64,000 nt of DNA from NCBI GenBank assembly GCA_964016885.1, contig OZ024746.1, positions 46,190,001 through 46,254,000 on the forward strand. Direction: 5' to 3'. Of this stretch, positions 3,482 through 52,949 are shown one piece after another. The translations under genes and the position numbers were made by a program. The stretch is from Eledone cirrhosa (taxonomy: Eukaryota). The notes beneath the pieces were generated by a model. The model was not told where the DNA came from. It made no database searches and saw only the letters and a list, made by a program, of their open reading frames with translations. Positions within the stretch are counted from its first letter, which is position 1. Each line of letters starts with the position of its first letter.

Positions 3482-3883
3482 TAATTGTTTCTGATTTAGG
3501 CACAAGGCTAGCAATTTTGGGGGAGGGGAACTCAATTAAATCAAACGAGTGTGTGACTGGTACTTTATTTTATCGATCCAGGAAGGATGAAAGGCAAAGC
3601 TAATCTTGGTGGTATTTGAAATCAGAATGTAAAGGGCCGAAATTCTATGTCGTAAAGCATGTTGTGCAAAGCTCTATCGATACTGCCAATAATTGTTTCT
3701 ACTTTAGGCACAAGGCCAGCAATTACCCAGTGCATTACTGGTACTTTATTTTATCAACCCCATAAGGATGAAAGGCAAAGTCAACCTCGGCGGGATTTGA
3801 ACTCAGATCGTTAAGGGATGTAACTATGCTGGAAAGCATGCCAATCCACTGCCTTTATATACTCTACCGATACTGCCAATAAT
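3482..3883 (-). mobile_element. Two nested tRNA-derived SINEs (family A)
   Basis: Two successive copies of ggtactttattttatc...aggatgaaaggcaaag...gatttgaa; ctcta(t/c)cgatactgccaataat is duplicated at ~3672-3693 and ~3862-3883. Confidence 0.8.
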
Positions 3884-4398: not shown

Positions 4399-4580
4399 GG
4401 TGGATTGGCAGTATCGATAGAGTGTCGGACGCCATGCTTTCCAGCATAGTTACGTCCCTTTACGATCTGAGTTCAAATCCCGCCGAGGTTGACTTTGCCT
4501 TTCATCCTTACGGGGTTGATAAAATAAAGTACCAGTAATGCACTGGGTAATTTGCTGGCCTTGTGCCTAAAGTAGAAACA
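4399..4580 (+). mobile_element. tRNA-derived SINE (family A), essentially full length, 18-bp TSD
   Basis: A box TGGCAGTATCG, B box GAGTTCAAATCC; TSD attatatttattccttat at 4381-4398 and 4581-4598. Confidence 0.92.
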
Positions 4581-6063
4581 ATTATATTTATTCCTTATTG
4601 TCAATTTCCACCTTCAATTCACCCAAAACAGTTGCAATAAATATCCTTAAATTAATATTTTATTTTAAAACTCTCAAAGGTGATGTCACAGAAGACTTGC
4701 TTTTCCATGCATAGAGGAGGAAACAAAGATGGAGAACAGTCTGTACCAATGTCCCTCATAGACTGCCTCCAACTTAATACTCACCCACCCTCCCCTCATT
4801 ATCTAAATACCCCACCTTAGACCTCTTTTACACTCTTCCATCATCCCCACCCAACCTTGCATATCCAACAACTCCCACCATCATAGAATAACATTACAAG
4901 AAAATGTATGAACTAGATATGGTCTCATATCTGGCCTAGTGATAGAGTGTGACAGTCTATCTATCCCAGGCATCCATCGCATTACATGTCTAATGACTAT
5001 GTTTATATACTCTCCACACCCTTGATACATCTTTCCAGTTAAATTCATGTATTCATGCACAGAAAACTGAACATGCTCCACACCTCTTACAGAGTGGTTG
5101 CCAGGGTAAACAAAAACAAAAAAAAAACACCTAGTCCTGTACGATGGTAGTGGTGGTGCCACAATACTTTATATATTATAATAAAAAATGGAGTGAGATA
5201 TGTTTTAACAAACTACACTTGTTTGTAAAGTGGAGAAAAGGTTATTGTGACCCTAGTCAAGCGTGATGATGGAGACCTATATTCAAAGACAATCCTGCCA
5301 TGGTCACACTGTTATTTCTAGGACTACATTATTCAATGTATGTGTTCCTTGTTTGAGATAATAGGGTGTGCTTTGAGAGAGATTTGGCTGCTATTTTTAT
5401 CAGATCAATTGATCACATAGAAGCTCTCTCATTGGTTTGTAGAGAAAGGATGACTTTTCTAGTGATGAACAAGCAAATTTCTTGGTACTAAATATTTCTT
5501 CCATTAATTGAAATAAATAAATAGGAACTTGGTTATCTTATAAAGTATAAACCAACATCAGTATTAAATGTATAGAGATTAGAAACAAATTATTTATAGA
5601 GTTTTACTTTCATTACATTAAGTACATTATGCAAAGCAGAGAAAACACTATTGACTGTAAAAGAATATATATTTATTTACTTCAAATAATCAAACTAATC
5701 AATGTTAATGGTTTAATGGAAAAGAAGTAAACTTCTAATAAAATCATAAATAAAAATAAACTTATCCATTAAAAGGTTCAGTTTAATAGATTTTAACAAG
5801 GCTAAAACAATTAAGAAGGGTCAATTATTCAAGTGGTATGAGTGTACAGATATCTATAAAGTTTTGCATTATACGAATGATTCATTATTGAGATCTACAA
5901 AATAGTCTTAACATGTTCCTCTCTTCCTCTCCTCTGTCTCATAAATATTTTTCCTAATATTTTCACTACTATTAGGCAACTATATGAAGTCTGTCTCTGA
6001 AGGTTTTTTGTGCTTCATCAGCAATTCTCTTACAATAATCTAATCTCAGGTCAGTCTTCAGTA

Positions 6064-12137: not shown

Positions 12138-13616
12138 AAAAAATAATATTTCTTGTTTTACTTGGATGAAGACAACTACTACAAAGCCTTTGTTGATATG
12201 CACTTCTCAGTAGTTTGTCAATGTAAATGCCAAGCCTTTGTGTTTCTAGCCATAATTGTAAGTGCCTCCTATGTGTAAACAAATGTAGATACATTTCACA
12301 TCAACAGGTCCCATTCCTACTTCCAAGCTGAGGAGTGAGCCAAAGTTTGAGTATCTAATTTCATTTTTTAATGTAATGGTTTGGCCAGAACAGGCAGAAC
12401 TGTCCATGACCATCTTAAAAGCTTCCATGTTTGATGAGAAGAGATAAAGTTTTCCTCACACAAGGCAACTAGCCCAAATATTTTTCATTCAGTAGACTTT
12501 ATTAAAGACACACAAGGGCCAAGTAGTAGTGTTAATTAATTCAAAATGTAGTCATTTAACATTATGAATATTGTTGCATTGATGCTAAAATATTTATGTA
12601 AATAAATAAAAATACATGTGTTAAAATATGCAATGTCAGGCGACAGAAAAAACAACATTGAAAATTAACTTACAATACATGCTTCAAACTTTGTTAATTG
12701 GAGCAACAAACAATTTCTGCTTCAGACATTATTAAGACAATCTAATAAGATATTCTAAGCATCAAGTACAGCAATATAACTTATTTAATACTTTATTTGA
12801 TATTTTGAGTTTATCCTTGGGTCACCTCTTCTCATTAGTTTCCCAGAAATAATGTCATTAATTTCAATTATGTTGATATGGACAGGAATTGCATTCAAAA
12901 TAACTTTCCTCCAATTTTTCCTAACCTATGTCATATCAACAGGCAGGCCTAAATAATAATGAAATTATCAAAATCATCTTAGCTATTTTTCTTGCCTACT
13001 AATTAAGTAAAACAAAAATGGAAAACATTCTTGTAAAAGCCAAATAACTTGAAAGACAGGTGACCTTTAGTAGTTACAATGAAATGTTCTACCTTCTGCT
13101 GTATCTTCTAATCTTTTGCAATCTACCTGATGTTTTTCATTGATAGCTTTGTATGTATCTTACATTCAGCCATATACACATACAACTGTATATATAGAGA
13201 GAAACAAAAGCTAGAATGTTATAATTATATTTACACAGAACTCTATGTTGTTCCTCTAAGCAAGTTACTTCTGCTTGCCTCAATTTGTCTAACAGATTCT
13301 ACTCTAACTTTTTGACTGAATAGGAAGTGATAAGAAGTGATTATTGGTAAAATATGATTAGTCACATGAGGGAAATTCAATTGTAAAAAATTGCTTAATC
13401 TCGGCCACATTAGTATTTGAGAAGTAAAATGTTGGTCTACCATGAGAATAAAAATTTAATAAAATGTTACATATTCCACTCCCTCTTCACACACCAGTAT
13501 ACCTCCACTTATTAATGTTTCCATTTGATTGGTCCTTGCCAATGCAAACTTACCAACATGAATTCACGTGGATTATCATTGTTTAAAAACATTTTTAATA
13601 AACAAACATTTCTTAC

Positions 13617-14285
13617 CTGAATCTATACAGTTCTCTTTTGTTTTGAAACAAGGATCTGGGTAAATTTTTAATCCATTTGGCCAGAATATTCCTTGGATAA
13701 CATTCAGTACCAGTTTATATTTTGTGCCATAAGGGCTCAACTGTAGAACAAGTTCAAATTCTTGTGATGAAGGATTAAAATCATATAATTTGTATTCAAA
13801 GTGTACTAGATTTTCTTTACCCAGTAATATCCAGCCAGCAGGTGATCGGAATGCTATCTGTTGTAGAGATTTTTTCAATGTCTCTGTGCTGGGACAAGAG
13901 AAACTGTTGTTATTTGTGTAAAGCAACATTTGAAGCACATCCCTGATAATGGAAGTATAATGTAAATTGTGTGTGACTTGTTTATTTTCTACAAAATACC
14001 TACTGACATTCAAATCAACAACAGAACTTGTATAGTTAAATGGAAGTTCTGAAAGGAATGAAACTTGTAAAACAAAAGCATGTTCAAGTACTTTGTGAAT
14101 GGTTGCCATGTGCTGTGGTTGGCCTTTTGAAGTCTGATGTATAATTCTTTCTACATATTCTTGAACTGTCTGGTACGGAGATGGATTGAACATGATTACT
14201 GCATGGTGTTTCTCAATAATCCCAATATTTTGGTTTTGAAAAAGCAAATGATGGCTGTCTTCTTCTCCCATGCAGAGTAAAATTC
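13617..14285 (-). CDS. Internal exon of a probable receptor (membrane) guanylyl cyclase or NPR-like protein: C-terminal part of the ANF-receptor ectodomain up to the juxtamembrane Cys pair
   Basis: Acceptor ctctcttctttctttctttacttttAG|GA at 14285; donor TCAG|GTAAGA at 13617. The 669 nt are stop-free, phase 1/1: (G/R)ILLCMGEEDSHHLL...IAFRSPAGWILLG...EYKLYDFNPSSQEFELV...IFWPNGLKIYPDPCFKTKENCIDS. The Y-x-L-x-D and I-x-WP-x-G...P-C-F...C pattern fits receptor GC ectodomain ends. Flanking exons were not identified. Confidence 0.72.
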
Positions 14286-14580
14286 CTAAAAGTAAAGAAA
14301 GAAAGAAGAGAGAGACAGATCAGAAATCAATTACAAAGTGTCTCAAGGCATTTTAGTCAATAATTTAAAACTTGAAATGATGTAATCATTGATGGAATCT
14401 AATATTGACTTTAGTGTAATGATTAGCAAGATAACATGTAGCCATGGTAATTAGCATTACTCAATACTGTTAAGTAGTTGTTCCAATGATTTTTAATTAT
14501 ATTCGCATACAAAATGTCATCATACAATTCAAACCTGGTATTAAATATTATATATACCAGTTCTCTACACAGTATCTACA

Positions 14581-14761
14581 TAATTGTTTCCACTTTTGGC
14601 ACAAGGCCATCAATTACCCAGTACATTACTGGTACTTTATTTTATAGACCCTGTAAGGATGAAAGGCAAAGTTAACCTCGGCGGGATTTGAACTCAGACC
14701 GTAAAGAGACGTATCTATGCTGGAAAGCATGGCGTCCGACCCTCTACCAATACTGCCAATC
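14581..14761 (-). mobile_element. tRNA-derived SINE (family A), 11-bp TSD
   Basis: Reverse match to 4399-4580; TSD atctacataat at 14574-14584 and 14762-14772. Confidence 0.9.
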
Positions 14762-18762: not shown

Positions 18763-18946
18763 GGCGGTGGATTGGCAGTATCGGTAGAGGGTCGGACGCC
18801 ATGCTTTCCAGCATAGTTACGTCCCTTTATGATCTGAGTTCAAATCCCGCCGAGGTTGACTTTGCCTTTCATCCTTACGGGGTCGATAAAATAAAGTACC
18901 AGTAATGCACTGGATAATTGCTGGCCTTGTGCCTAAAGTAGAAACA
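18763..18946 (+). mobile_element. tRNA-derived SINE (family A), full length, 10-bp TSD, inserted into an older SINE
   Basis: GGCGGTGGATTGGCAGTATCGGTAGA...GAGTTCAAATCC; TSD attatgacag at 18753-18762 and 18947-18956. Confidence 0.92.
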
Positions 18947-19064
18947 ATTATGACAGCTTTGCTAATTTACCACCTGACTGTAAATTAAGTACAAGAAAGT
19001 AATGAGGTAGATAATGTCAACTTCATTCTCCCCCTAAATTTGTGGGCTTGGGTTTATTTTGAAA

Positions 19065-23645: not shown

Positions 23646-24300
23646 GAAACAAAGCTTGCATGCTCTGATGAATGTGTAATAGTAATATATGTTAACAGCA
23701 AAGCATAAACGAATTGAGAGAGAGACTGAGCACAAGAGGAATCAGATGCTGTGTGCAGGAGAGGGGGTTGCATTGGTATGGACATGTGATGCGTATGAAG
23801 GATGACAGCTGCATAAAAAGGTGCAGAGCACTAGAAGTCGAAGGAAGCCGTGGAGTGAGAAGACCCAAGAAGACCTGGGATGACGTGATAAAAGACGACC
23901 TTACCCAATTACACCTCTCTAGGGCGATGACACACGACATGATTTCTGTCATCACGCAGTAATACAGAAGACCTGACTTCCCACGAGTACAAGCCGAAGC
24001 TGAAGCATATAGACAATATGCCCCCACCCCTCCCACTGCAAAATGGTCATAGAAGTGCCACGGCAAAAAAGCACCCAGCCCACACTAAAGTGGTCGTGTA
24101 GGTGCCACGGAAAAAAAAAGCATGCAGCAATGACTGTAAATGAGGTTGGTATTAGGAAGGGCATCCAGCGGTAGAGATCAAGCCACAATCAGTTCCTGTA
24201 TGAGCAAGACAAGGTCAGCCGACTGGACACTGCTCACAACAGGACAACCCGTCTAACCCATGCTAGCGTGGAAGAATGGACGTAAAACGCTGATGATGAT
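23640..24300 (+). mobile_element. 5'-truncated RTE-clade LINE, same family as 21335-22087
   Basis: GLHWYGHVMRMKDDSCIKRC...RPKKTWDDVIKDDL; same 3' tail; starts in (TA)n. Confidence 0.85.
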
Positions 24301-24316
24301 ATTGGTGATATCATAC

Positions 24317-24357
<41 letters not shown>

Positions 24358-24373
24358 CATGTGTATATATATA

Positions 24374-24407
<34 letters not shown>

Positions 24408-24689
24408 TAAATCATGTCTTTAGAATCATCAGATATTAAAATATATACTATTTCTTCTTCTAATTAGCATAATTAACCATATACAAAATCAATCCTAGCA
24501 AGCTATAAGAATAAATTCTCTTATGGGGAAATCTCAGACAAATAACTGAACGTAGCCTCTTCGCGGCGGCCCCGTTCTAGTATTTATCCAACATTTCGAC
24601 AGCATGTAGAAACTGACGAAACATACCATCAACCATACACAATTAGTTGTAAAATTAAACTTAGAAGAAATGTGCACATACCGTAATTA

Positions 24690-24767
24690 TATCTCTACCA
24701 TGGTTTCTTCCTTATTTTGGACATCCAAATAATAGGAATGTCCTGAGCTAGGATTCATCAGGAGACA
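24690..24767 (-). ncRNA. Type I hammerhead ribozyme motif (minimal palindromic stem III, long stem II)
   Basis: UGUCUC-CUGAUGA-AUCCU...GGACAU..AUGUCC...AGGAA-GAAA-CCAUGG-UA-GAGAUA. Stem I 6 bp, intact CUGANGA/GAAA core, GUA triplet, predicted cleavage 3' of 24696. Confidence 0.7.
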
Positions 24768-25410
24768 AACTCAAAATCAGACATCTAGTTTTTCAATCCG
24801 ATCCCGCCAAAATTAGATTCAAAAATGGCTAGAAATCGCTATGTAGCTGTGTTCCAGCCAGAGAGAAAGAATGTGATTGGTTGCTTACGGCGGGTAGGCT
24901 TGCTGCTAGAAAGCGCAGTCAAATATCGCCAAATTTAATCTCAACCTATTGGGAGATTATTTGTTCGGTTATTTGTCTGAGATTTCCCCATGAGAGAATT
25001 TATTCTTATAGCTTGCTAGGATTGATTTTGTATATGGTTAATTATGCTAATTAGAAGAAGAAATAGTATATATTTTAATATCTGATGATTCTAAAGACAT
25101 GATTTATGATATAATGCTCTGATTTTTTGATTTTAATTTATTAATTCTTCATAGAGCTTAAAAGTGAACAGTTGCAACATATATATATCTTTATGTATAT
25201 GATAACCTTTATATTTAATAATCTCCCAATAGGTTGAGATTAAATTTGGCCATATTTGGCTGCGCTTTCTAGCAGCAAGCCTACCTGCCGTAAGCAATCA
25301 ATCACATTCTTTCTCTCTGGCTGGAACACAGCTACATAGCGATTTTTAGCCATTTTTTAATCTAATTTTGGCGGGATCGGATTGAAAAACTAGATGTCTG
25401 ATTTTGAGTT

Positions 25411-25488
25411 TGTCTCCTGATGAATCCTAGCTCAGGACATTCCTATTATTTGGATGTCCAAAATAAGGAAGAAACCATGGCAGAGATA
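25411..25488 (+). ncRNA. Second copy of the hammerhead motif, with a U16.1-to-C substitution
   Basis: tgtctc-ctgatga-atcct...aggaa-gaaa-ccatgg-Ca-gagata; C at 25481 replaces the invariant U. Confidence 0.6.
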
Positions 25489-25876
25489 TAATTACGCTAT
25501 GTGCGCATTTCTTCTAAGTTTAATTTTACAACTAATTGTGTATGGTTGATGGTATATTTGGTCAGTTTCTACATGCTGTCGAAATGTTGGATAAATACTA
25601 GAACGGGGCCGCCGCGAGGAGGCTACGTTCGGTTATTTATCTGAGATTTCCCCATAAGAGAATTTATTCTTATAGCTTGCTAGGTTTGATTTTGTATATG
25701 GTTAATTATGCTAATTAGGAGAAGAAATAGTATATATTTTAATATCTGATGATTCTAAAGACATGATTTATGATATAATGCTCTGATTTTTTGATTTTAA
25801 TTTATTAATTATTCATAGAGCTTAAAAGTGAACAGTTGCAACATATATATATCTTTAACTTTATGTATATGATAAC

Positions 25877-25880
<4 letters not shown>

Positions 25881-25943
<63 letters not shown>

Positions 25944-25994
25944 CATACATATGTGTATATATACATATATTTATACACGTATGTATGTATATAT
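25881..25994. repeat. (TA)n/(TACA)n microsatellite
   Basis: Seen directly. Confidence 0.95.
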
Positions 25995-26359
25995 GGAGGC
26001 ACATGACTTAGTGGTATGTATGTATGTATATATGGAGGCATTGGCCTTGCAATCGAAAGGTTGTGAGTTCAATTATCAGACCGGGTGATGTGTTGTTTCC
26101 TTGAGCAAAACACTTTATTTCACATTGCTCCAGTTTACTCAGCTGTAGAAATGAGATGATAGGGACTGGGGTCCATATCATTCCACTGCAAAGTGGTCGT
26201 GCAGGTACCACGGCAAAAAAGCACCCAGCACTCACTGTAAATGAGATTGGTGTTAGGAAGGGCATCCAGCTGTAGAAGTCAAGCCAGAATCAGTTCCCGT
26301 CCCACCCTTGCAAGCAGGGAAAAAGTGGACGTAAAATGAAATGATGATGATGATGATGA
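25995..26359 (+). mobile_element. tRNA-derived SINE (family B) with rearranged head and (GAT)n tail
   Basis: Highly similar to the reverse complement of 1601-1940. Confidence 0.88.
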
Positions 26360-27982: not shown

Positions 27983-29210
27983 CTATGGGAAAATACAAAA
28001 TTAGCTTCCTGTTGCCTTCCTCTTGATTTATGTGACAAGACACCAGCTTTTTAGCTAAGTATATATAAGTTTATAGCATTTGACTAGGTACTCAGAATGT
28101 AAAGAGCCAGTGGGAAGAAATTCTCAAGAGAGTTTACAGCAAAAGGTCTTCAGAGAAGAAACCCACCTCAAGCAAGTGTTTTGGCCCTTAACTTTTGAAA
28201 CATTTCTAGCATCTGACAAGGTACTCAGAATGTAAAGACAAATGCAATAAAAAAGTGTGTTCAATGTATTAACAACTCTGCCAATCCTTGACCCAGACTG
28301 GTACATTATTGACTGACCCTGGGAGGATGAAAGGCAAAGTCGACCTTGTGACTCAGTGCATAAAGAGCCTGAACAAATACCACAAGGCATTACGTCCAAA
28401 GCTCCGATAATCCTGCAAATTCACCACCACCTATCCAATGAATAGATTTCAAATAAAAGTACTAGAACTGAAATGCATATGAGTATGTAAATTATCATGA
28501 TAGCTGGTTGAATTGGTTCTACTCAATATTACACACAAGCTTGCTTAACCACTAGAACATTTACAAGGTTTGGAGATAAGTGAATTATATCTCATGCAAA
28601 GAATGGTTATGAAGCTGCTGATGCAGTTCATTATCTTCATTAATATGAAGTGCTCAATCAGCAGAATAAATCTTATCCTGTGAGAAAGGAAAGAAGTTTA
28701 ATGTTGCAGCCATAATTATTTTGGCTGAAACATTAAATATATCTTTTTCCTGGCAGCCTAAAATGTAGTTCACATCATTTACACCTTCCATTGCAATGTT
28801 TTTAATATAATACACTGTATTTAAATTGATCACTGACGAATTTGGAGGGATTATGTCATTATTAAGATGGTATTTTCAACATAACATATAGTTCTTATAT
28901 AGAATTATGTTGGAAAATTTTAATTTATGTTAGAACACTTTGAATTGGATGGTTTTGTTCTATAGTACCAGAGGTACTTTAGGGCATTAATGGAAGGAAG
29001 GAAAGGCTATACTCAACAATAATATCCTTGTATGAAAAGAAGAGATTAGAGCCATTCAGCTGACTCTAAAACTGATATCTATTTGTTTACCACCTACCAA
29101 GGGAGCTATGACACATGGTCACTCAACCTGCTAGAAATAGAAACCAAATCATCCAAAAATCAGAGAATATATTTTTAGATATAGACTAAAAAGAGATGGA
29201 ATAGTTACTA

Positions 29211-29648
29211 GACCTGAAAAATGCGCAAGCTCAAAAGAGCCACAGAATGTTTTAATAAACCTTCAAAAGTGTGGGACTAGAGTTGTTGCTCAAAAATATT
29301 GTAATCATTATCTATCGTACACTCTGTGGCATCCTTTTATAAAAAAAGAGACTCATAACGAACTCAAGACGAGACAGTAATTATTTAAGCTAATGTTCAA
29401 TATCTCATATTAGATGTTAAGTAATGATTAATACGAAATGCACTTAAACCGAATTGTATATTATAAATTCACTTAAATAATTATCGTGTCGTCTTGAGTT
29501 CGTTATGAGTCTCTTGTTTATAAAAGGATGCCACAGAGTGTATGATAGATAATGATTGCAATATTTTTGAGCAACAACTCTAGCCCACACTTTTTAAGTT
29601 TTATTATAACATTCTGTGGCTCTTTTGAGCTTGCACATTTTTCAGGTC
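29211..29648. mobile_element. Foldback MITE with ~178-bp TIRs and TA TSD
   Basis: TA-GACCTGAAAAATG...CATTTTTCAGGTC-TA; arms ~29211-29389 and ~29472-29648; ~82-bp spacer. Confidence 0.88.
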
Positions 29649-29865
29649 TAATTTAATATTTTTTTAAGGCAACACTTGTAATAACTCTAGTTAAACATGA
29701 TATATATTAATAATAAATTATTGTTGTAATGTAATTAGATTATATAATTGTTATTTTATAAATGATCTTATAAATATTATTGTAAGATGTATAAAAATAT
29801 TTTCAGACTTTTAATAGTTAATATAAATTTTAAAAAATCATATATAAATTAACAATATAACTTAC

Positions 29866-32620: not shown

Positions 32621-33400
32621 TTGCTATCAGTCAGATAATAGCTGTTATTGTGTATATAGAATATTCTATGTATATTTTATCCAAATTCTGGCAGTAAATT
32701 CTTCCAGTTCTATCTTTTCCTCTTACTTAAGATACATTCAAAAAATCATAACTATTTTTTAGCAAATTAAATATTAATATATTTTTTGAGTGATACTTAT
32801 TCCTTTTTGATTTCATTTCTCAGAATTGCTTCACAAAAATAAATTACAATGTTATTATTCATGTGGTGTATTTATGTATTAACACTTATATCATATTTGC
32901 TTTTAAATTTATTTTGTTTGTCATATATCATATTCAAAACCAGACATAAATATTTTTCTAGACGAACCAGAAATACAGTAATGACATTTTAGAAAAAAAT
33001 AAAACATGGGTGAAAATGGTCAGAGTAATAAACTAAGAAATATAAACAATGTATAAGAAAGATGTAAAGTGCAAGAAAAAGTATATATTACATTATACAC
33101 ACACATACATATATGTTTAGATATGGAAGGTGATTAAATCTTTATTGCTGATCTCACTGTATTTTTTATATCTCGATAGTTAATTTATTTGGCAATCAAT
33201 GTTTATCATTGATTGACCAACAGTTAAAAATACAGATATAAATATATATATATATAGTCTATCAAAGTTCTTTAATCACTCATCAGCAACATCATCAGTG
33301 GTACTATTATGTTTTCTCCCATTATATTGTAAATCAAGGGAAAGCAAATAAAGAAACATTTTTAAATAAATTTAAAAAAATTCACTGTACTTACTACATG

Positions 33401-33484
33401 TGCCTTTACCGCGGTTTCAAATCGCAAAATGAATAGATAATCCAGGCGGATTTCCATTGAGAAAGAGATTATCGTCAGAAGGCA
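33401..33484 (-). ncRNA. Type I hammerhead ribozyme motif at the 3' end (pLTR) of a Penelope-like element
   Basis: UGCCUU-CUGACGA-UAAUC...GAUUU-GAAA-CCGCGG-UA-AAGGCA. Perfect 6-bp stem I, palindromic stem III, GUA triplet, predicted cleavage 3' of 33407; ~280 bp downstream of the GIY-YIG stop on the same strand. Confidence 0.68.
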
Positions 33485-33764
33485 TTTCTCTCTCAGAGAA
33501 TATAAAATTCCCGAGTTAAAAATTTCAAACTGGCGCCATTCCAAACTGACTCAAAATGAGAGTAAATTAATTAATTTATTTCTTCTTGTCTCTGTCTCCG
33601 CGCATGTATTTGCGTGTGTGTATAATGTTTGGTGTGTGTGTTCGCGTTAGAGTGTATGTGGTTTTGTTTTTCTATTCTATCTTTGTTCACTAGTGTGTGT
33701 TTATATGTGTTTGTTGTTATTGTATTTGTGTATATATATATTTATTTATTTATTTATATTTCCC

Positions 33765-34064
33765 TCAAGTCAGTATTGTTGTTTGGGTATGGTTGTTGTT
33801 GTTATTCCATTCACTCTTTTTATTCAACTTTGGTCGTCTTAGTTCTATCTCAGTTGCTTCCCTGATTTGCCTACCTGTTGAGTCATTTCTATGCTTAGAT
33901 ATTATTTTAATTTCTATGTTGCCTATATTGCCATCATGTGTTTGTCTGCCATATAGTACTGAACCATGTTTTTGTCCTTTTAGTTCACCCCAGTGTTGGT
34001 CTGTTCTTTCTTCTATGCTTCAAGCTGTCTCACCTACGTATGTTGTCATGTTTCTGCAAGTACC
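33765..34064 (-). pseudogene. GIY-YIG endonuclease C-terminus of a Penelope-like retroelement
   Basis: GTCRNMTTYVGETA*SIEERTDQHWGEL...SVLY...H...RQIREATEIELRRPKLNKKSEW...*, showing the YVGET...ER..xH and EA..I...LN motifs; one internal TGA at 34020-34022. Confidence 0.75.
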
Positions 34065-34115
34065 CTATATATATGTGTGTATATATATATATATACACAC
34101 ATATATATAGGGTAC
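34060..34115. repeat. Perfect 56-bp palindrome
   Basis: gtaccc-tatatatat-gtgtgt-(at)7-acacac-atatatata-gggtac is its own reverse complement. Confidence 0.92.
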
Positions 34116-42115: not shown

Positions 42116-44453
42116 CTACATGATTAAAGCACCGCACAATAGCAGTTTAAAAATATACCATGCTACACAGTTTTTTTGGCCAATGAACCCTCCGACCGGA
42201 ACGGGTCGTAGTCTTATATCTTGGTGATGGGGGGGGGGGGGGGGCAAAGACACAGGTGTGTGTGCAAAAGAGAAAGATGGGGGTGTATGTGGCTCAGGTG
42301 TGTGAGCATCTGTGTGGGCCCGTTTAAGTCTATCAACCGCAATGGTCTCTTTGGATTCCTTAATGTCTACAGTGAAATGTTTATCAGAACGAGCCAACAC
42401 ACAGTAGGGTCCAGAGTATGGTTGTTTGAGAGGTGGTCTCACAGCATCGTTTCTTATGAACACATGGGTCCACGAGGCAATATCCCTCGAGACTGCAGAT
42501 TTTACAGTTTGTTTCCTCGTATCCATCGGCGGCAGGTCCTGAAAATAAGAATGCAAACGGGATACGTAGGAAAGCGGATCTTGTGCAGCAAGATCGATAG
42601 GGGCAAGCATTTTCCCAGGCAACGCTAGAGGAGCACCATACAATAATTCGGCCGGGGAGAACCCAAGGTCCTCCTTTATTGATGACCGAATCCCCAACAA
42701 CGCAATAGGGAGGTACTCGCTCCAACACGTAGAGTCAGGAGAAGTTCGTAGAGCGGCTTTTAGTTGTCGGTGGAAAGGCTCCACCATTCCATTAGAAGCA
42801 GGATGATATGCAGTCGTTCGGATGCATTTAGCGCCGATGATTTTCGTTAATTCATGGAATAGATTCGATTCAAACTGTCTTCCATGGTCCGTTGTAATCG
42901 TGGTTGGCACTCCAAAGCGGGCAATCCATCCTGATACTAGGGCAGGCGCTATCGTTCCAGCAGTGATGTCTATCAAGGGGATGGCTTCAGGCCATCGCGA
43001 AAAACGATCAATAACAGTCAATAGATAAGTATGACCACCACTGACTGGTCAAGGTCCCACGATGTCCACATGATTGTGCCGGAAACAGGCGTCCGGTGTA
43101 CTGAACGTACCGAGCGGAGCCTTAACGTGTTTATGCATTTTCGATTTCTGGCAAGCAATGCAGAAACGGCACCAAGCAGTAATATCACGCCTCATATTTG
43201 GCCAGAAGAATCTGGCTGTTATAAGCTTTACTGTGGCAGAAGATCCTGGGTGGGAAATGCTGTGTAAAGCAAGAAACACAATACGACGATGGTTTAGCGG
43301 GACGAATGGTCTCGGTGAATCCACGGAACAACGCAGAGAATCTGTCCGTCTGCCGTGAACAATGGCAGGTATTTCAAATTACTCGTCACAAATTCGGCTG
43401 ATATAATATCCAACGATTCCAGTGCAGGTTGGTCTGCTGCCAAGTGATTTAAATCGATGTTGTGGGATGACGCAATTGAACTGATCGGCAATCGAGACAC
43501 GGCGTCAGCCGCTGTGTTCCATGAGCCTGGAATGTGTTGGATGTCATTTGTGAATTGCGAGATAAAGTAGAGATGCCTTGTTTCTCTGCGCGAGTACTTG
43601 TCGGACTTTGCCCTTAAAGCGAAGGTCAAAGGTTTATGGTCAGTATAGATTGTAAAACACCTTCCTTCGAGCATATGTGAAAAATTTTTCACGGAAAGGT
43701 AGATGGATAACAGCTCCCGGCCAAAGGTGCTGTAGCGAGTTTCTGCAGGCTTCAACTTCCTGGAGAAAAATTCCAATGGTTGTTGGTGATCGTCACTACT
43801 CTGTTATAAGACTGCACCTACTGCAGTATCCGACGCATCAACACAAAGCGAAAGCTTGGCATTGGACATTGGGTGGGCCAGCAAAGATACACTAGCCAAT
43901 GCTGATTTGGCTTTTGAAAATCCTTGAGCTGAGTCTGAGTCAAAGAGATGTCCTTATTTTTCTTGCGGCAATTTTTCAGAATCTCAGTAAGATATAAGAG
44001 TAGATTAGCACAATGCGGAACAAAACGTCTATAGAAATTTATCAGTCCTAGGAATTGTCGCAACTGACGAAGTGAGGTCGGCGGAGGCAAATCCTCTATA
44101 GCCTGAACTCGTTGAGGGAGGGGTCGAATACCCTCGGAGTCAATGACATGACCTAAAAAATTCAGTGATTCCGCACCGAAAACACATTTTGTGGTATTTA
44201 TTTGAACACTGTAATCCTTGAGTCGACAAAACAAAAGATTCAAATGACATATGTGTTCTTCTCTGGAGGAACTAGCAATAAGTAAATCATCAATATAAGT
44301 GTAGACGATGTCTAAACCACGAGTGATCTCATCCATGAACCGTTGAAAGGTGCTAGCAGCATTCCTAAGTCCGAAAGGCATGGTAAGAAATTCGAATGAT
44401 CCAAATGGAGTCGTAATGGCCGTTTTCGGAATATCTTCTTTCTTGACAGGAAT
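42116..44453 (-). pseudogene. pol: Gypsy pol (RT-RNase H-integrase), frameshifted
   Basis: RT: TAITTPFG, MPFGLRNA, YIDD. RNase H: DAS, FFSRKL, TDHKPL, ADAVSR. Integrase: HSISH...[28 protein letters not shown]. The RT-RH-IN order is Gypsy-type; split over four frames. Confidence 0.95.
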
Positions 44454-44522
44454 CAGTCGACGCTAGATGGCGTGATCTTCTACAATGCCTTTTGAGAAAA
44501 ACTTAGGTAGAGACAATCACCC

Positions 44523-50549: not shown

Positions 50550-52578
50550 TACTTATGTTTAAATATCTCTAAGTGTACTAGGCTTATTTATTTTCCAGAA
50601 TCCACTTCCAGAATGATATGGATATAGTCTAGAGGAGTAATCATTAACAATTAGATGAAAAAGTGAACTTTATATATTGCTCTCAGTTTGCCTCATGTAT
50701 ACGGTATCCTCATTATCATAATCATCATCATTTTGATCTCAACTTTCTCTGCTAGCAAAGATTGGATGGGTCTACATAGTTCAAGTCAGTATAGAAGACA
50801 GGCTACTAATCTCCCAGACAGGCCAGAGATTTGCATATCACTTACATAGTCTCATATTCTACTGAGTGCACAGGAGAGGTTGTCATCTCTTTGACACAAC
50901 TGAAGGGTCTTATACAATTTCATAATCTGCAAATGAAATCTATAAACATATATCATATAGCACTCAATCATGTCAAATCTTTACGTCTGTGTCCAATATT
51001 GCATACCATTCAAAAATTTATTTCTTATAAGAAAAAATTCACAGATTAAAGGAATTTCCATCAATAACAATAAAAAATGTTTGAAATACTATTAAACGTA
51101 GTTCTTAACATTGATATATAAAATACTTAGATATGCAAAACTACCTTGCAAACTACAATTGGTTCCTATATTTTCTATAATCGATCTATCTATCATCATC
51201 ATCAATCTCTTATATATACATATATATAATCATTTTATTTAGACTAAATACTGAGTACATTTTTCTCTCAGCTGTCATATATAAGGAGGTGCTAAAATAT
51301 CTGGAGTTATTATTTCACAATGAAATACTGTTTTTCTACATTCACTATATCATCATAAGTTTTATTTATGCATTGCCTTAAGAAGATTTGCAACAAATTT
51401 CTTTTATTTGAACTTTTTAATACATAAATATTCTCTACACATACACGCACGTCAACTGTTTTTCTCTGTGATTTAGTTATACTTTTTCTTTCAATTTGGA
51501 GTGAGCTGTGTAGATGTTGTCATTTTCGATGGTATAGTTAATGATGGTCATCCATTTGAGTAGGTAAACAGTTGCTGTAGAAATTCTATTTTAATTGTAG
51601 TAGCTATATTCACTTGAATACTTACACATATAATAAACTTCATGAATGTAGAAGTATCATATATATCTTAATCTTTTACCTGATGCTCCTGAATTAATCA
51701 GTGAAATGACAATAAAATTGATTAAACTGTCACCACGAGAGGCTTCCAACTAACCAATTGAATATGAATACTCAGAGCAACATGCTTCTCAGCTCTGTAT
51801 TATCATCAAAACAAGTGTTTAATAGTTTTATACATTCAAATATGTCTAGCTTGAGAGATGAGCTGGTATAGACATTTTTTTTTTTTACTATAGTTATTTT
51901 CCTAAATTATAAACACAAACAAGAATATATTAGTAAATATATAACAAATATAAATACAGAAACATGTTCTTAATGTTGATTAATAGATCTTCAGAATCCT
52001 AAACATTTTGAAGTTTTCATGTGAGTTATTATTGCTGTATTATGTAGCTATTTAAAAACAACAACAGCAATAACAATAAAATGATAAGTATGAAAATAAT
52101 TTAGCAAATATCATAATGGCTCTATTTTCAATTTCTCATGAATTATTTATATATTTCAGTTGAAAAATTATTTGTAGTAACATCAGCCTGAATGTCTTTA
52201 GTACCAAACAATATTTATATTCAGTCTCCTAATGGCTTTTATAATTAAAACAACAAATCATATAAATATAATATAAATAATAATTTCTTAATTAAACATG
52301 AATTTTTAGTAATACAATGAAGTGAAAATTTCTAAGAACTGTGCCATTCTTTAAAAAGTAATTAGTGCAATGAAGATATTCAAGAAGGAACCTATTGACT
52401 GAGCATGTCGCCTGCAACCAAGGTTGTAAATGAATAACAATTATAGTTTCTTACTAAAGAAGGTATTTAGTGTTAACTGTTTTACCCCAGGAAAATGATT
52501 ATTGCTTATTCTCTATTAACTCTAGATTCATACTATTATTCTGTTAATACACCCAATGACAAGAGGTGGTAACTAGAT

Positions 52579-52758
52579 AATTTTTTCTACTATTGGCACA
52601 AGGCCAGAAATTACCCAGTACGTTACTGGTACTTTATTTTATCGACCCCGTAAGGATGAAAGGCAAAGTTAACCTCGGCGGGATTTGAACTCAGAATAGC
52701 AAGGGCCGTATCTCTATGCATCAAAGCATGGCGTCCAACCCTCTACCGATACTGCCAA
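52579..52758 (-). mobile_element. tRNA-derived SINE (family A)
   Basis: Reverse match to 18763-18946. Confidence 0.88.
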
Positions 52759-52949
52759 TGTCTGTTAAATATTTATAGAATATATTATTTAAATTTCCAA
52801 GCATAAATGACTTCTGAAATGTAGATTTTATTGAGCTACATGAGTTACTAAAACATTTATCATACCTACCATGATTACCATTAAAAAATCTCTACATATT
52901 TACTCAACCTGTTGGAAATGGCTTCCAAATCTCCTTCAAACCACAATGT

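Follow-up and report, generated by a model that had tools for sequence, protein, structure and literature searches.

A multi-copy, non-coding hammerhead repeat of ~664-670 nt has, in our judgement, probably been mobilised in trans by a Neptune-type Penelope-like reverse transcriptase (RT)/endonuclease, most likely through twin priming on one uncut multi-unit RNA. The copy on which this reading is based occupies positions 24401-25880 of a 64-kb window (the whole stretch of DNA that was analysed, in which all positions are given) and is a real ORF-less hammerhead repeat insertion with Penelope-type ends. The enzyme that moves animal retrozymes, the role of circles as the real template and the origin of Penelope-like inverted insertions are treated as open in the available text of PMC7229834, PMC8557442 and bioRxiv 10.64898/2026.07.22.740005. 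The value of the locus lies in its single-template geometry and in a shared atypical hammerhead; as the class itself is known, the surprise is moderate.

Architecture of the insertion and its repeat family

Unit positions are numbered from 25217, and circular coordinates comprise 670 nt including a 6-nt joint (Table 1). As a preliminary description of this DNA had proposed, the insertion contains an inverted copy of 561 nt: 24401-24961 is 97% complementary to 25217-25777, with 16 substitutions. The direct partial copy begins where it had been placed, at 24963 (unit position 411), 664 nt ahead of its counterpart in the full unit, to which it is 96-97% alike; its end, however, had been set at 25213, and the copy runs to 25216 with the joint included. 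Similarly, 25217-25880 does correspond to one full turn of the unit, but the view of 25217 as a natural 5' end was not borne out: as contigs and reads run through this position, 25217 is the break of this insertion and no demonstrated unit start. No loose end was found before 25217 among the rows listed, beside which there are at least 312 further loose-end rows. The (TA)n tracts claimed for both flanks are present, and the reported absence of ORFs of 60 aa or more within 24401-25880 holds for ATG-started ORFs, one stop-to-stop frame of 73 aa being found. None of the nine frames scanned in 24401-25880 reached a Pfam cut-off or contained an endonuclease remnant; an RT and GIY-YIG ORF between the repeats is absent at this locus, where the units join directly. 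No further copy of the unit was detected elsewhere in the 64-kb window. An 8-nt word that occurs twice at the inversion junction suggests microhomology joining, and we take this doubled word to be a mark of microhomology repair.

Table 1. Positions of the features of the repeat insertion and of the coding Penelope-like fragment
Feature	Positions	Strand	
Left (TA)n target array	24326-24405	.	
Inverted arm, unit 1-561; its 3' end (561) is the main family end into (TA)n	24401-24961	-	
Predicted rod-like hairpin, unit 270-529, 93 pairs (20 G-U), beginning 4 nt past the predicted cut	24433-24692	-	
Intact type I hammerhead motif, predicted cut after 24696 (unit 266)	24691-24766	-	
TGGCG...TTGAA motif of the inverted arm	24792-24809	-	
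Inversion junction, 8-nt word twice (24957-24964, 24969-24976)	24957-24976	+	
Direct copy lacking its 5' part, unit 411-670; its last 6 nt (25211-25216) are the head-to-tail joint common to the family	24963-25216	+	
One full unit turn; right end at unit 664-668, ambiguous through overlap with the TA target	25217-25880	+	
Putative promoter-like motif (TGGCG...TTGAA), 48 nt ahead of the hammerhead core	25369-25386	+	
Predicted inactive hammerhead motif; private change of U16.1 to C at 25481	25412-25487	+	
Rod-like hairpin region of the full unit	25486-25745	+	
Right (TA)n target array	25880-25994	.	
5'-truncated Penelope-like (Neptune-type) copy: endonuclease remnant, UTR, hammerhead, 3' end in (TA)n	33257-34060	-	
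Second hammerhead: 6-bp helix I, U-U at 10.1/11.1, 53-nt helix II region, 8-nt palindromic helix III, GUA triplet	33401-33484	-	
TGGCG...TTGAA motif of the coding fragment	33524-33538	-	
GIY-YIG endonuclease remnant with one in-frame stop	33807-34058	-	

The unit was aligned with four of seven public sequencing runs, none of which is recorded as RNA: X1, X2, X4 and X5 (three samples from three studies, X1 and X2 being from one sample). It matched 1224, 1184 and 36 contigs and 2868 reads, most of them 90-99% alike and falling into several subfamilies. The head-to-tail joint from 25880 to 25217 recurred in all four runs with the 6 letters that it has in the window: firmly in one X4 contig with 89 nt on the short side and a depth of 4.9 and in 5 X5 reads and 6 more with a variant joint (sides of 31-32 nt), and in one contig each of X1 and X2, whose short sides measure only 21 and 25 nt; 31 X5 reads run over the ends. 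Because the joint recurs in all four runs, ORF-less head-to-tail copies are a trait of the family. The main 3' end of the family lies at unit 561 (25777), where 10 X1 contigs continue into (TA)n and where, at the adjacent 25778, A is replaced by T in 32 of 66 X5 reads; it coincides exactly with the outer end of the inverted arm. A second 3' end, at unit 664-668, was seen at this locus only. The unit is thus a diverse, multi-copy, ORF-less head-to-tail family, some copies of which may be linked to an ORF. These data uphold the earlier proposal of a non-autonomous element copied from a template longer than one unit, for which the ORF-less multi-copy family, the joint in four of four runs and the (TA)n ends speak; the objection that the unit might be single-copy fails. 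Piles of X5 read begins and ends had been considered as RNA ends and were rejected, as they fall on CATG and AATT words and are attributed to restriction cuts.

That the inversion is an assembly artefact, or a DNA-level satellite rearrangement that involved no RNA step, is very improbable: inverted repeats beside microsatellites are hard to assemble (PMC8557442, in the text available) and the read alignment covered the unit rather than the inversion junction, but the arms differ at 16 positions, at 8 of which the inverted arm has the majority letter of the family, the RNA structure is strand-specific and the family has a fixed end into (TA)n.

Hammerhead motif, RNA fold and upstream motif

The preliminary description mentioned a ribozyme in its title only. 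A type I hammerhead motif is indeed present in each long arm, with cores at 25417 (+) and 24761 (-), and a type I descriptor, written after the motif had been seen, matched twice in the window, compared with 0.01 matches per window after shuffling (a match in 1 shuffle out of 100). Both long arms have a 5-bp helix I, the CUGAUGA and GAAA boxes and an 8-nt palindromic helix III, with a GUA triplet in the inverted arm. Helix II has 4 bp with an A-A mismatch at its opening and an inner hairpin, for 47 nt between the boxes; A-A occupies 10.1/11.1 in both arms (25424/25470 in the full unit), so that the canonical G10.1-C11.1 pair closing helix II is absent. The motif of the full unit, predicted to be inactive, carries C at U16.1, a position that is T in 108 of 109 X5 reads and in all of the covering depth of X1, X2 and X4; only the motif of the inverted arm is therefore intact. 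Across the family in the public runs, the core boxes and the cleavage triplet are kept, and so is U16.1, which is needed for cleavage.

The 10.1-11.1 pair is described as the most conserved one after 15.1-16.1, with U-U the only natural mismatch reported as tolerated in the available text of PMC3088659. Judged from the sequence, the A-A at this position would therefore count against fast cleavage. The palindromic helix III cannot fold alone, and an 8-bp duplex between two copies is predicted at -11.2 kcal/mol; a dimer-type hammerhead with a short palindromic helix III has been described for Penelope-like elements (PMC4209133; PMC6765202). The hammerhead of the unit is predicted to be active only in dimeric form and at a low rate. 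At 24401-25880 no two successive units both have a complete hammerhead, and no contig in the four runs spans two units; a pair of complete hammerheads in succession would be implied for the RNA template.

Other searches were negative or yielded rejected candidates. Rfam gave no match at gathering over the window and 53 weak matches over 24300-26000, none of them to a hammerhead family, and the folding of the 101-nt hammerhead region did not exceed that of shuffled sequences (z -0.11 and -0.59). Another CTGATGA, near 25746, was dismissed as a second ribozyme because other subfamilies have not retained it. A metagenome scan with a 22-nt hammerhead word found no match, and the 9 loci recovered from a viral scan with a gapped core pattern were taken as chance, none being blastn-similar to the unit.

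Folded as a circle, the natural 664-nt monomer is 65% paired and gave a z of -5.6 for the hammerhead strand versus -1.1 for the antisense strand (40 shuffles each). Within the predicted rod (Table 1), 16 family variants beyond those present in the folded arm were compared, drawn from 40 of 225 variant rows: 6 keep a pair, 6 are unpaired and 4 break a pair, against 7.9 breaks expected (P 0.018), and no two-sided compensatory change was found among the 16. Another hairpin opens the unit at positions 1-27. The TGGCG...TTGAA motif is located 48-60 nt ahead of all three hammerhead cores and nowhere else in the window, a pattern chosen after it had been seen; the copy at 25369-25386 is presumably E2F/CHR-like.

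Reads at 25378, 25423-25500 and 25597 belong to other subfamilies that diverge directly past the CUGAUGA box; one subfamily has a different core-like word closer to the upstream motif, and in another the tip of the rod is formed by a different hairpin (141 X5 reads). This divergence suggests sequence turnover with the structure kept.

The coding Penelope-like fragment and its relatives

The fragment at 33257-34060 likely displays the class of the mobiliser. A descriptor match at 33478 (-) lies inside this fragment, 8 kb from the ribozyme repeat. The preliminary description mentions neither this fragment with its hammerhead nor the twin-priming register of the insertion. A protein search with the endonuclease remnant retrieved 55 relatives (best E 7e-12), one of them an Octopus bimaculoides protein that is 43% identical. 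Pfam GIY-YIG was matched in 4 of the 18 relatives scanned, twice above the cut-off, and the longer relatives carry RT motifs, a CX2-5CxxC linker and GIY-YIG. A direct Pfam scan of the remnant gave no family, and a word-index search for longer relatives returned 12 candidates, none of which passed. The CX2-5CxxC linker is assigned to Neptune and Nematis and tied to microsatellite targeting in the available text of PMC8557442. The label Neptune for the fragment is taken from the linker and RT of its relatives, the fragment itself being truncated before the linker, and is an assignment by motifs rather than by a tree, with the linker present in Nematis as well.

The fragment and the unit have in common the mismatch at 10.1/11.1, the long helix II region, the 8-nt palindrome, the upstream motif and the TA end; the letters differ in all three hammerhead helices. 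When the unit was compared with the non-coding part of the fragment, the one candidate partner compared, the similarity was not significant (11 of 200 shuffles scored as high), which counts against the reading we prefer. As nucleotide similarity is not significant, the coding fragment is a relative in design and an unproven partner. A perfect TA-rich palindrome of 56 bp (34060-34115) borders the 5' side of the fragment.

Twenty-four metagenome loci of Neptune-like proteins were also inspected. A relaxed descriptor matched in 6, on the sense strand 3' of the endonuclease in 4; these 4 hammerheads have 11-17 nt between the core boxes and lack the upstream motif, unlike the unit with its 47 nt and motif. 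At one locus, L026 (77-889), a Neptune-like endonuclease fragment on a metagenome contig is bordered by an inverted and a direct terminal repeat; a short canonical hammerhead is present in either repeat, and both arms end at the same site. Since L026 has the inverted-plus-direct layout, this layout is ordinary for the Neptune-like clade. An alignment of Neptune-like proteins with viral contigs gave 106 stretches, none confirmed. Another locus, L010 (1-3441), holds an apparently complete Neptune-like element on a contig whose ends overlap by 123 nt, as in a tandem assembled into a circle; a hammerhead follows the protein match at a distance of 79 nt.

Insertion geometry, mechanism and related systems

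In circular coordinates the last position of the right arm is 664-668 and the first of the inverted arm is 1, with 669-670 missing. As the inverted arm begins 2 nt past the end of the other arm, the 1.48-kb insert is colinear with one template of ~2.2 units. On the minus strand the target is followed by the inverted piece, which runs backwards from 668 by way of one complete turn to 411, then by piece 1-561 and again by target. An independent arm would begin within a 10-nt window of the end of the other with a probability of ~1.5% (10 in 670, calculated by hand and after the fact). In L1, twin priming leaves two fragments of one RNA inverted relative to each other and a small deletion inside the insert (PMC2837659, in the text available), and twin priming on a single RNA is the most likely reading of the insert geometry at this one locus. 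The breakpoints fall at unit 411, 561, 664-668 and 1; none of them is at the predicted cleavage site (266), which both long arms span, so that the template was either uncut there or had been re-ligated. A linear multimer and a circle both fit as template.

The insertion could have arisen as follows. Transcription of tandem source copies, whose joint is known from DNA, would yield a multimer, and the enzyme would cut the two strands of a (TA)n tract, as the flanks suggest. One DNA end would prime on the UAUA word at the main 3' site of the family (unit 561), its cDNA extending back to position 1. The other end would prime internally, on the UAUAU of 664-668 that lies slightly upstream in the same RNA, and its cDNA would cover 1.4 units, back to 411. 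The two cDNAs would then be joined through microhomology with the loss of 2 nt, leaving the 8-nt duplication; the junction is observed and the repair route is the part we infer. The hammerhead set no end of this insert. The unit itself likely derived from the terminal repeat (pLTR) of a coding element through loss of the ORF. In vitro, a Poseidon protein cleaves the two target strands and extends each of them, initiates at internal RNA positions and has unprocessed RNA as its main substrate (PMC11167929, in the text available); by analogy, an uncut template at 24401-25880 would agree with this use.

It is unlikely, although this alternative survives best, that the unit is a true retrozyme, in which dimeric hammerheads cut the multimer at 266, a 670-nt monomer is circularised and the insert results from rolling reverse transcription. 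The constant joint, the copying of more than one unit, the circular fold (65% paired, z -5.6), the cleavage triplet intact across the family and the predicted dimer duplex would all be accommodated, and circles have been demonstrated for coral, mussel and axolotl repeats (PMC7229834). However, the hammerhead is of the Penelope type and mismatched at 10.1/11.1, 8 of 9 predicted Xenopus dimers failed to cleave (bioRxiv 10.64898/2026.07.22.740005, in the text available), Poseidon mainly uses unprocessed RNA (PMC11167929) and a second enzyme on one circle would have to displace the first cDNA.

Dual priming on two RNAs with natural ends at the joint (5' at 1, 3' near 668), the tandem resulting from template jumps, is improbable. 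It would likewise account for the joint as the site of both breaks, the unit begins with a hairpin (1-27), and the L026 arms have one common 3' end, a fit to priming on two RNAs that also weighs against twin priming. The two arms at 24401-25880 have no common 3' end, though, and the joint letters are identical in all runs, as a templated joint predicts. Of the 16 differences between the arms, 10 are peculiar to the full copy and 1 to the inverted arm, the other 5 being unpolarised; this imbalance would suit two RNAs, but the asymmetry of 10 versus up to 6 is not significant, and different templates for the two arms (10 versus 1-6 private changes) were rejected as unsupported.

Quite improbable, too, is that the unit serves chiefly as terminal repeat of a coding element of Neptune type, with the tandem joint a minor ORF-less by-product. 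The hammerhead design and upstream motif common with 33257-34060 would fit, as would the several diverged subfamilies, the records of 13,978 nt (X1) and 6,503 nt (X4) that touch the unit and the summed contig depth, which is not a copy number, being much higher just before the 561 end. Against this stand the ORF-less joint in all four runs, with 11 joint reads in X5 versus 31 reads over the ends, the lack of a loose end before 25217 among the rows listed and the failure of all nine scanned frames to show an endonuclease remnant.

Trans-mobilisation through twin priming on one uncut RNA thus remains the reading we favour, and a search of the openly readable literature listed no report of Penelope twin priming. 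A broader proposal is tentative and rather doubtful: that Penelope-like machinery twin-primes hammerhead tandem repeats on a single uncut multimer, and that the elements of this lineage have a distinct hammerhead variant (open 10.1/11.1, ~50-nt helix II insert, 8-nt palindrome) which selection maintains as a slow switch, gated by dimer formation or by protein, between retrotransposition and circular RNA. If true, twin priming on one multimer would explain the long-unexplained inverted-plus-tandem Penelope-like insertions, and the insertion would be a testable footprint of ribozyme-repeat spread. In a family with many copies, a fixed end and a short unit, the start and end positions of arms could separate twin from dual priming.

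The unit is a non-autonomous Penelope-like, retrozyme-like variant that falls short of a proven retrozyme and belongs to a class already known. It was filed as retrozyme-like because the Penelope layout, the TA end and a dimer-type hammerhead are present and the canonical 10.1-11.1 pair is not. As in animal non-LTR retrozymes (Cervera & de la Pena 2020, PMC7229834; Li et al. 2026, in the text available), the unit is ORF-less, low in GC, head-to-tail, highly self-paired and equipped with one type I hammerhead, and is a proposed non-autonomous Penelope-like derivative; animal retrozymes have been argued to be such derivatives (bioRxiv 10.64898/2026.07.22.740005; Li, Clavereau & Pollet 2026). The preliminary description had considered the length unusual, a point that has to be withdrawn, as ~664-670 nt falls inside the 51-972 bp reported for animal retrozyme families, whose average is 650 bp in ray-finned fish (bioRxiv 10.64898/2026.07.22.740005). 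Unlike animal retrozymes, as far as these sources describe them, the unit has a Penelope dimer-type hammerhead with the 10.1/11.1 mismatch and a 47-nt helix II region, and the locus ends in (TA)n with an inverted arm and lacks two consecutive intact hammerheads; two consecutive units, each with a complete hammerhead, define an active copy for Li et al. Whereas circles have been demonstrated for some retrozymes, the unit is known from DNA, its cleavage is predicted and its circle hypothetical. Cephalopods are not named in the available main text of PMC7229834 and bioRxiv 10.64898/2026.07.22.740005, and in the openly readable literature, outside Repbase and Dfam, only the Craig paper was relevant among reports of Octopus hammerhead ribozymes.

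The earlier statement that a partial tandem with inverted ends is typical of Penelope-like insertions agrees with PMC8557442, which describes the partial tandem, inverted and full layout as well as a TA bias of Neptune, Hydra and Naiad. With canonical EN+ Penelope-like elements of the Neptune clade (PMC8557442; PMC4209133; PMC11167929, in the text available), the unit has in common this layout, a pLTR hammerhead with a palindromic helix III, microsatellite targets, two alternative 3' ends and an uncut RNA substrate. It differs from them in having no ORF, in its two ends being ~105 nt apart instead of a 30-40 bp tail and in its two arms being colinear on one template. Non-autonomous Chlamys elements such as MRC1 (PMC8557442) are similarly ORF-less with pLTRs and multicopy head-to-tail insertions, but they are green-algal, most are described there as lacking canonical hammerheads, and they target (CA)n or (C)n. 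L1 twin priming (PMC2837659; PMC2246262) resembles the present case in the two inverted fragments of one RNA, the internal priming by the second end and the small deletion; it involves the poly(A)-primed LINE-1, in contrast to a Penelope-type repeat, TA target priming on UA words and a multimeric template.

Other elements were observed in the window. A broken Gypsy-type pol remnant at 42116-44462 (-), in which RT, RNase H and the zinc finger and core of the integrase each occupy a stop-to-stop frame of their own, has best relatives that are 60-70% identical. An imperfect palindrome of ~440 bp (87%) at 29209-29650 is a MITE-like fold-back element, and a stop-to-stop frame of 247 aa at 13576-14319 (-), which has no Pfam match and is not of low complexity, is possibly a host exon. 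A dispersed repeat of ~190 bp is present in at least 5 copies that are 81-97% alike (3689-3880, 4399-4585, 14572-14761, 18765-18952 and 52569-52759).
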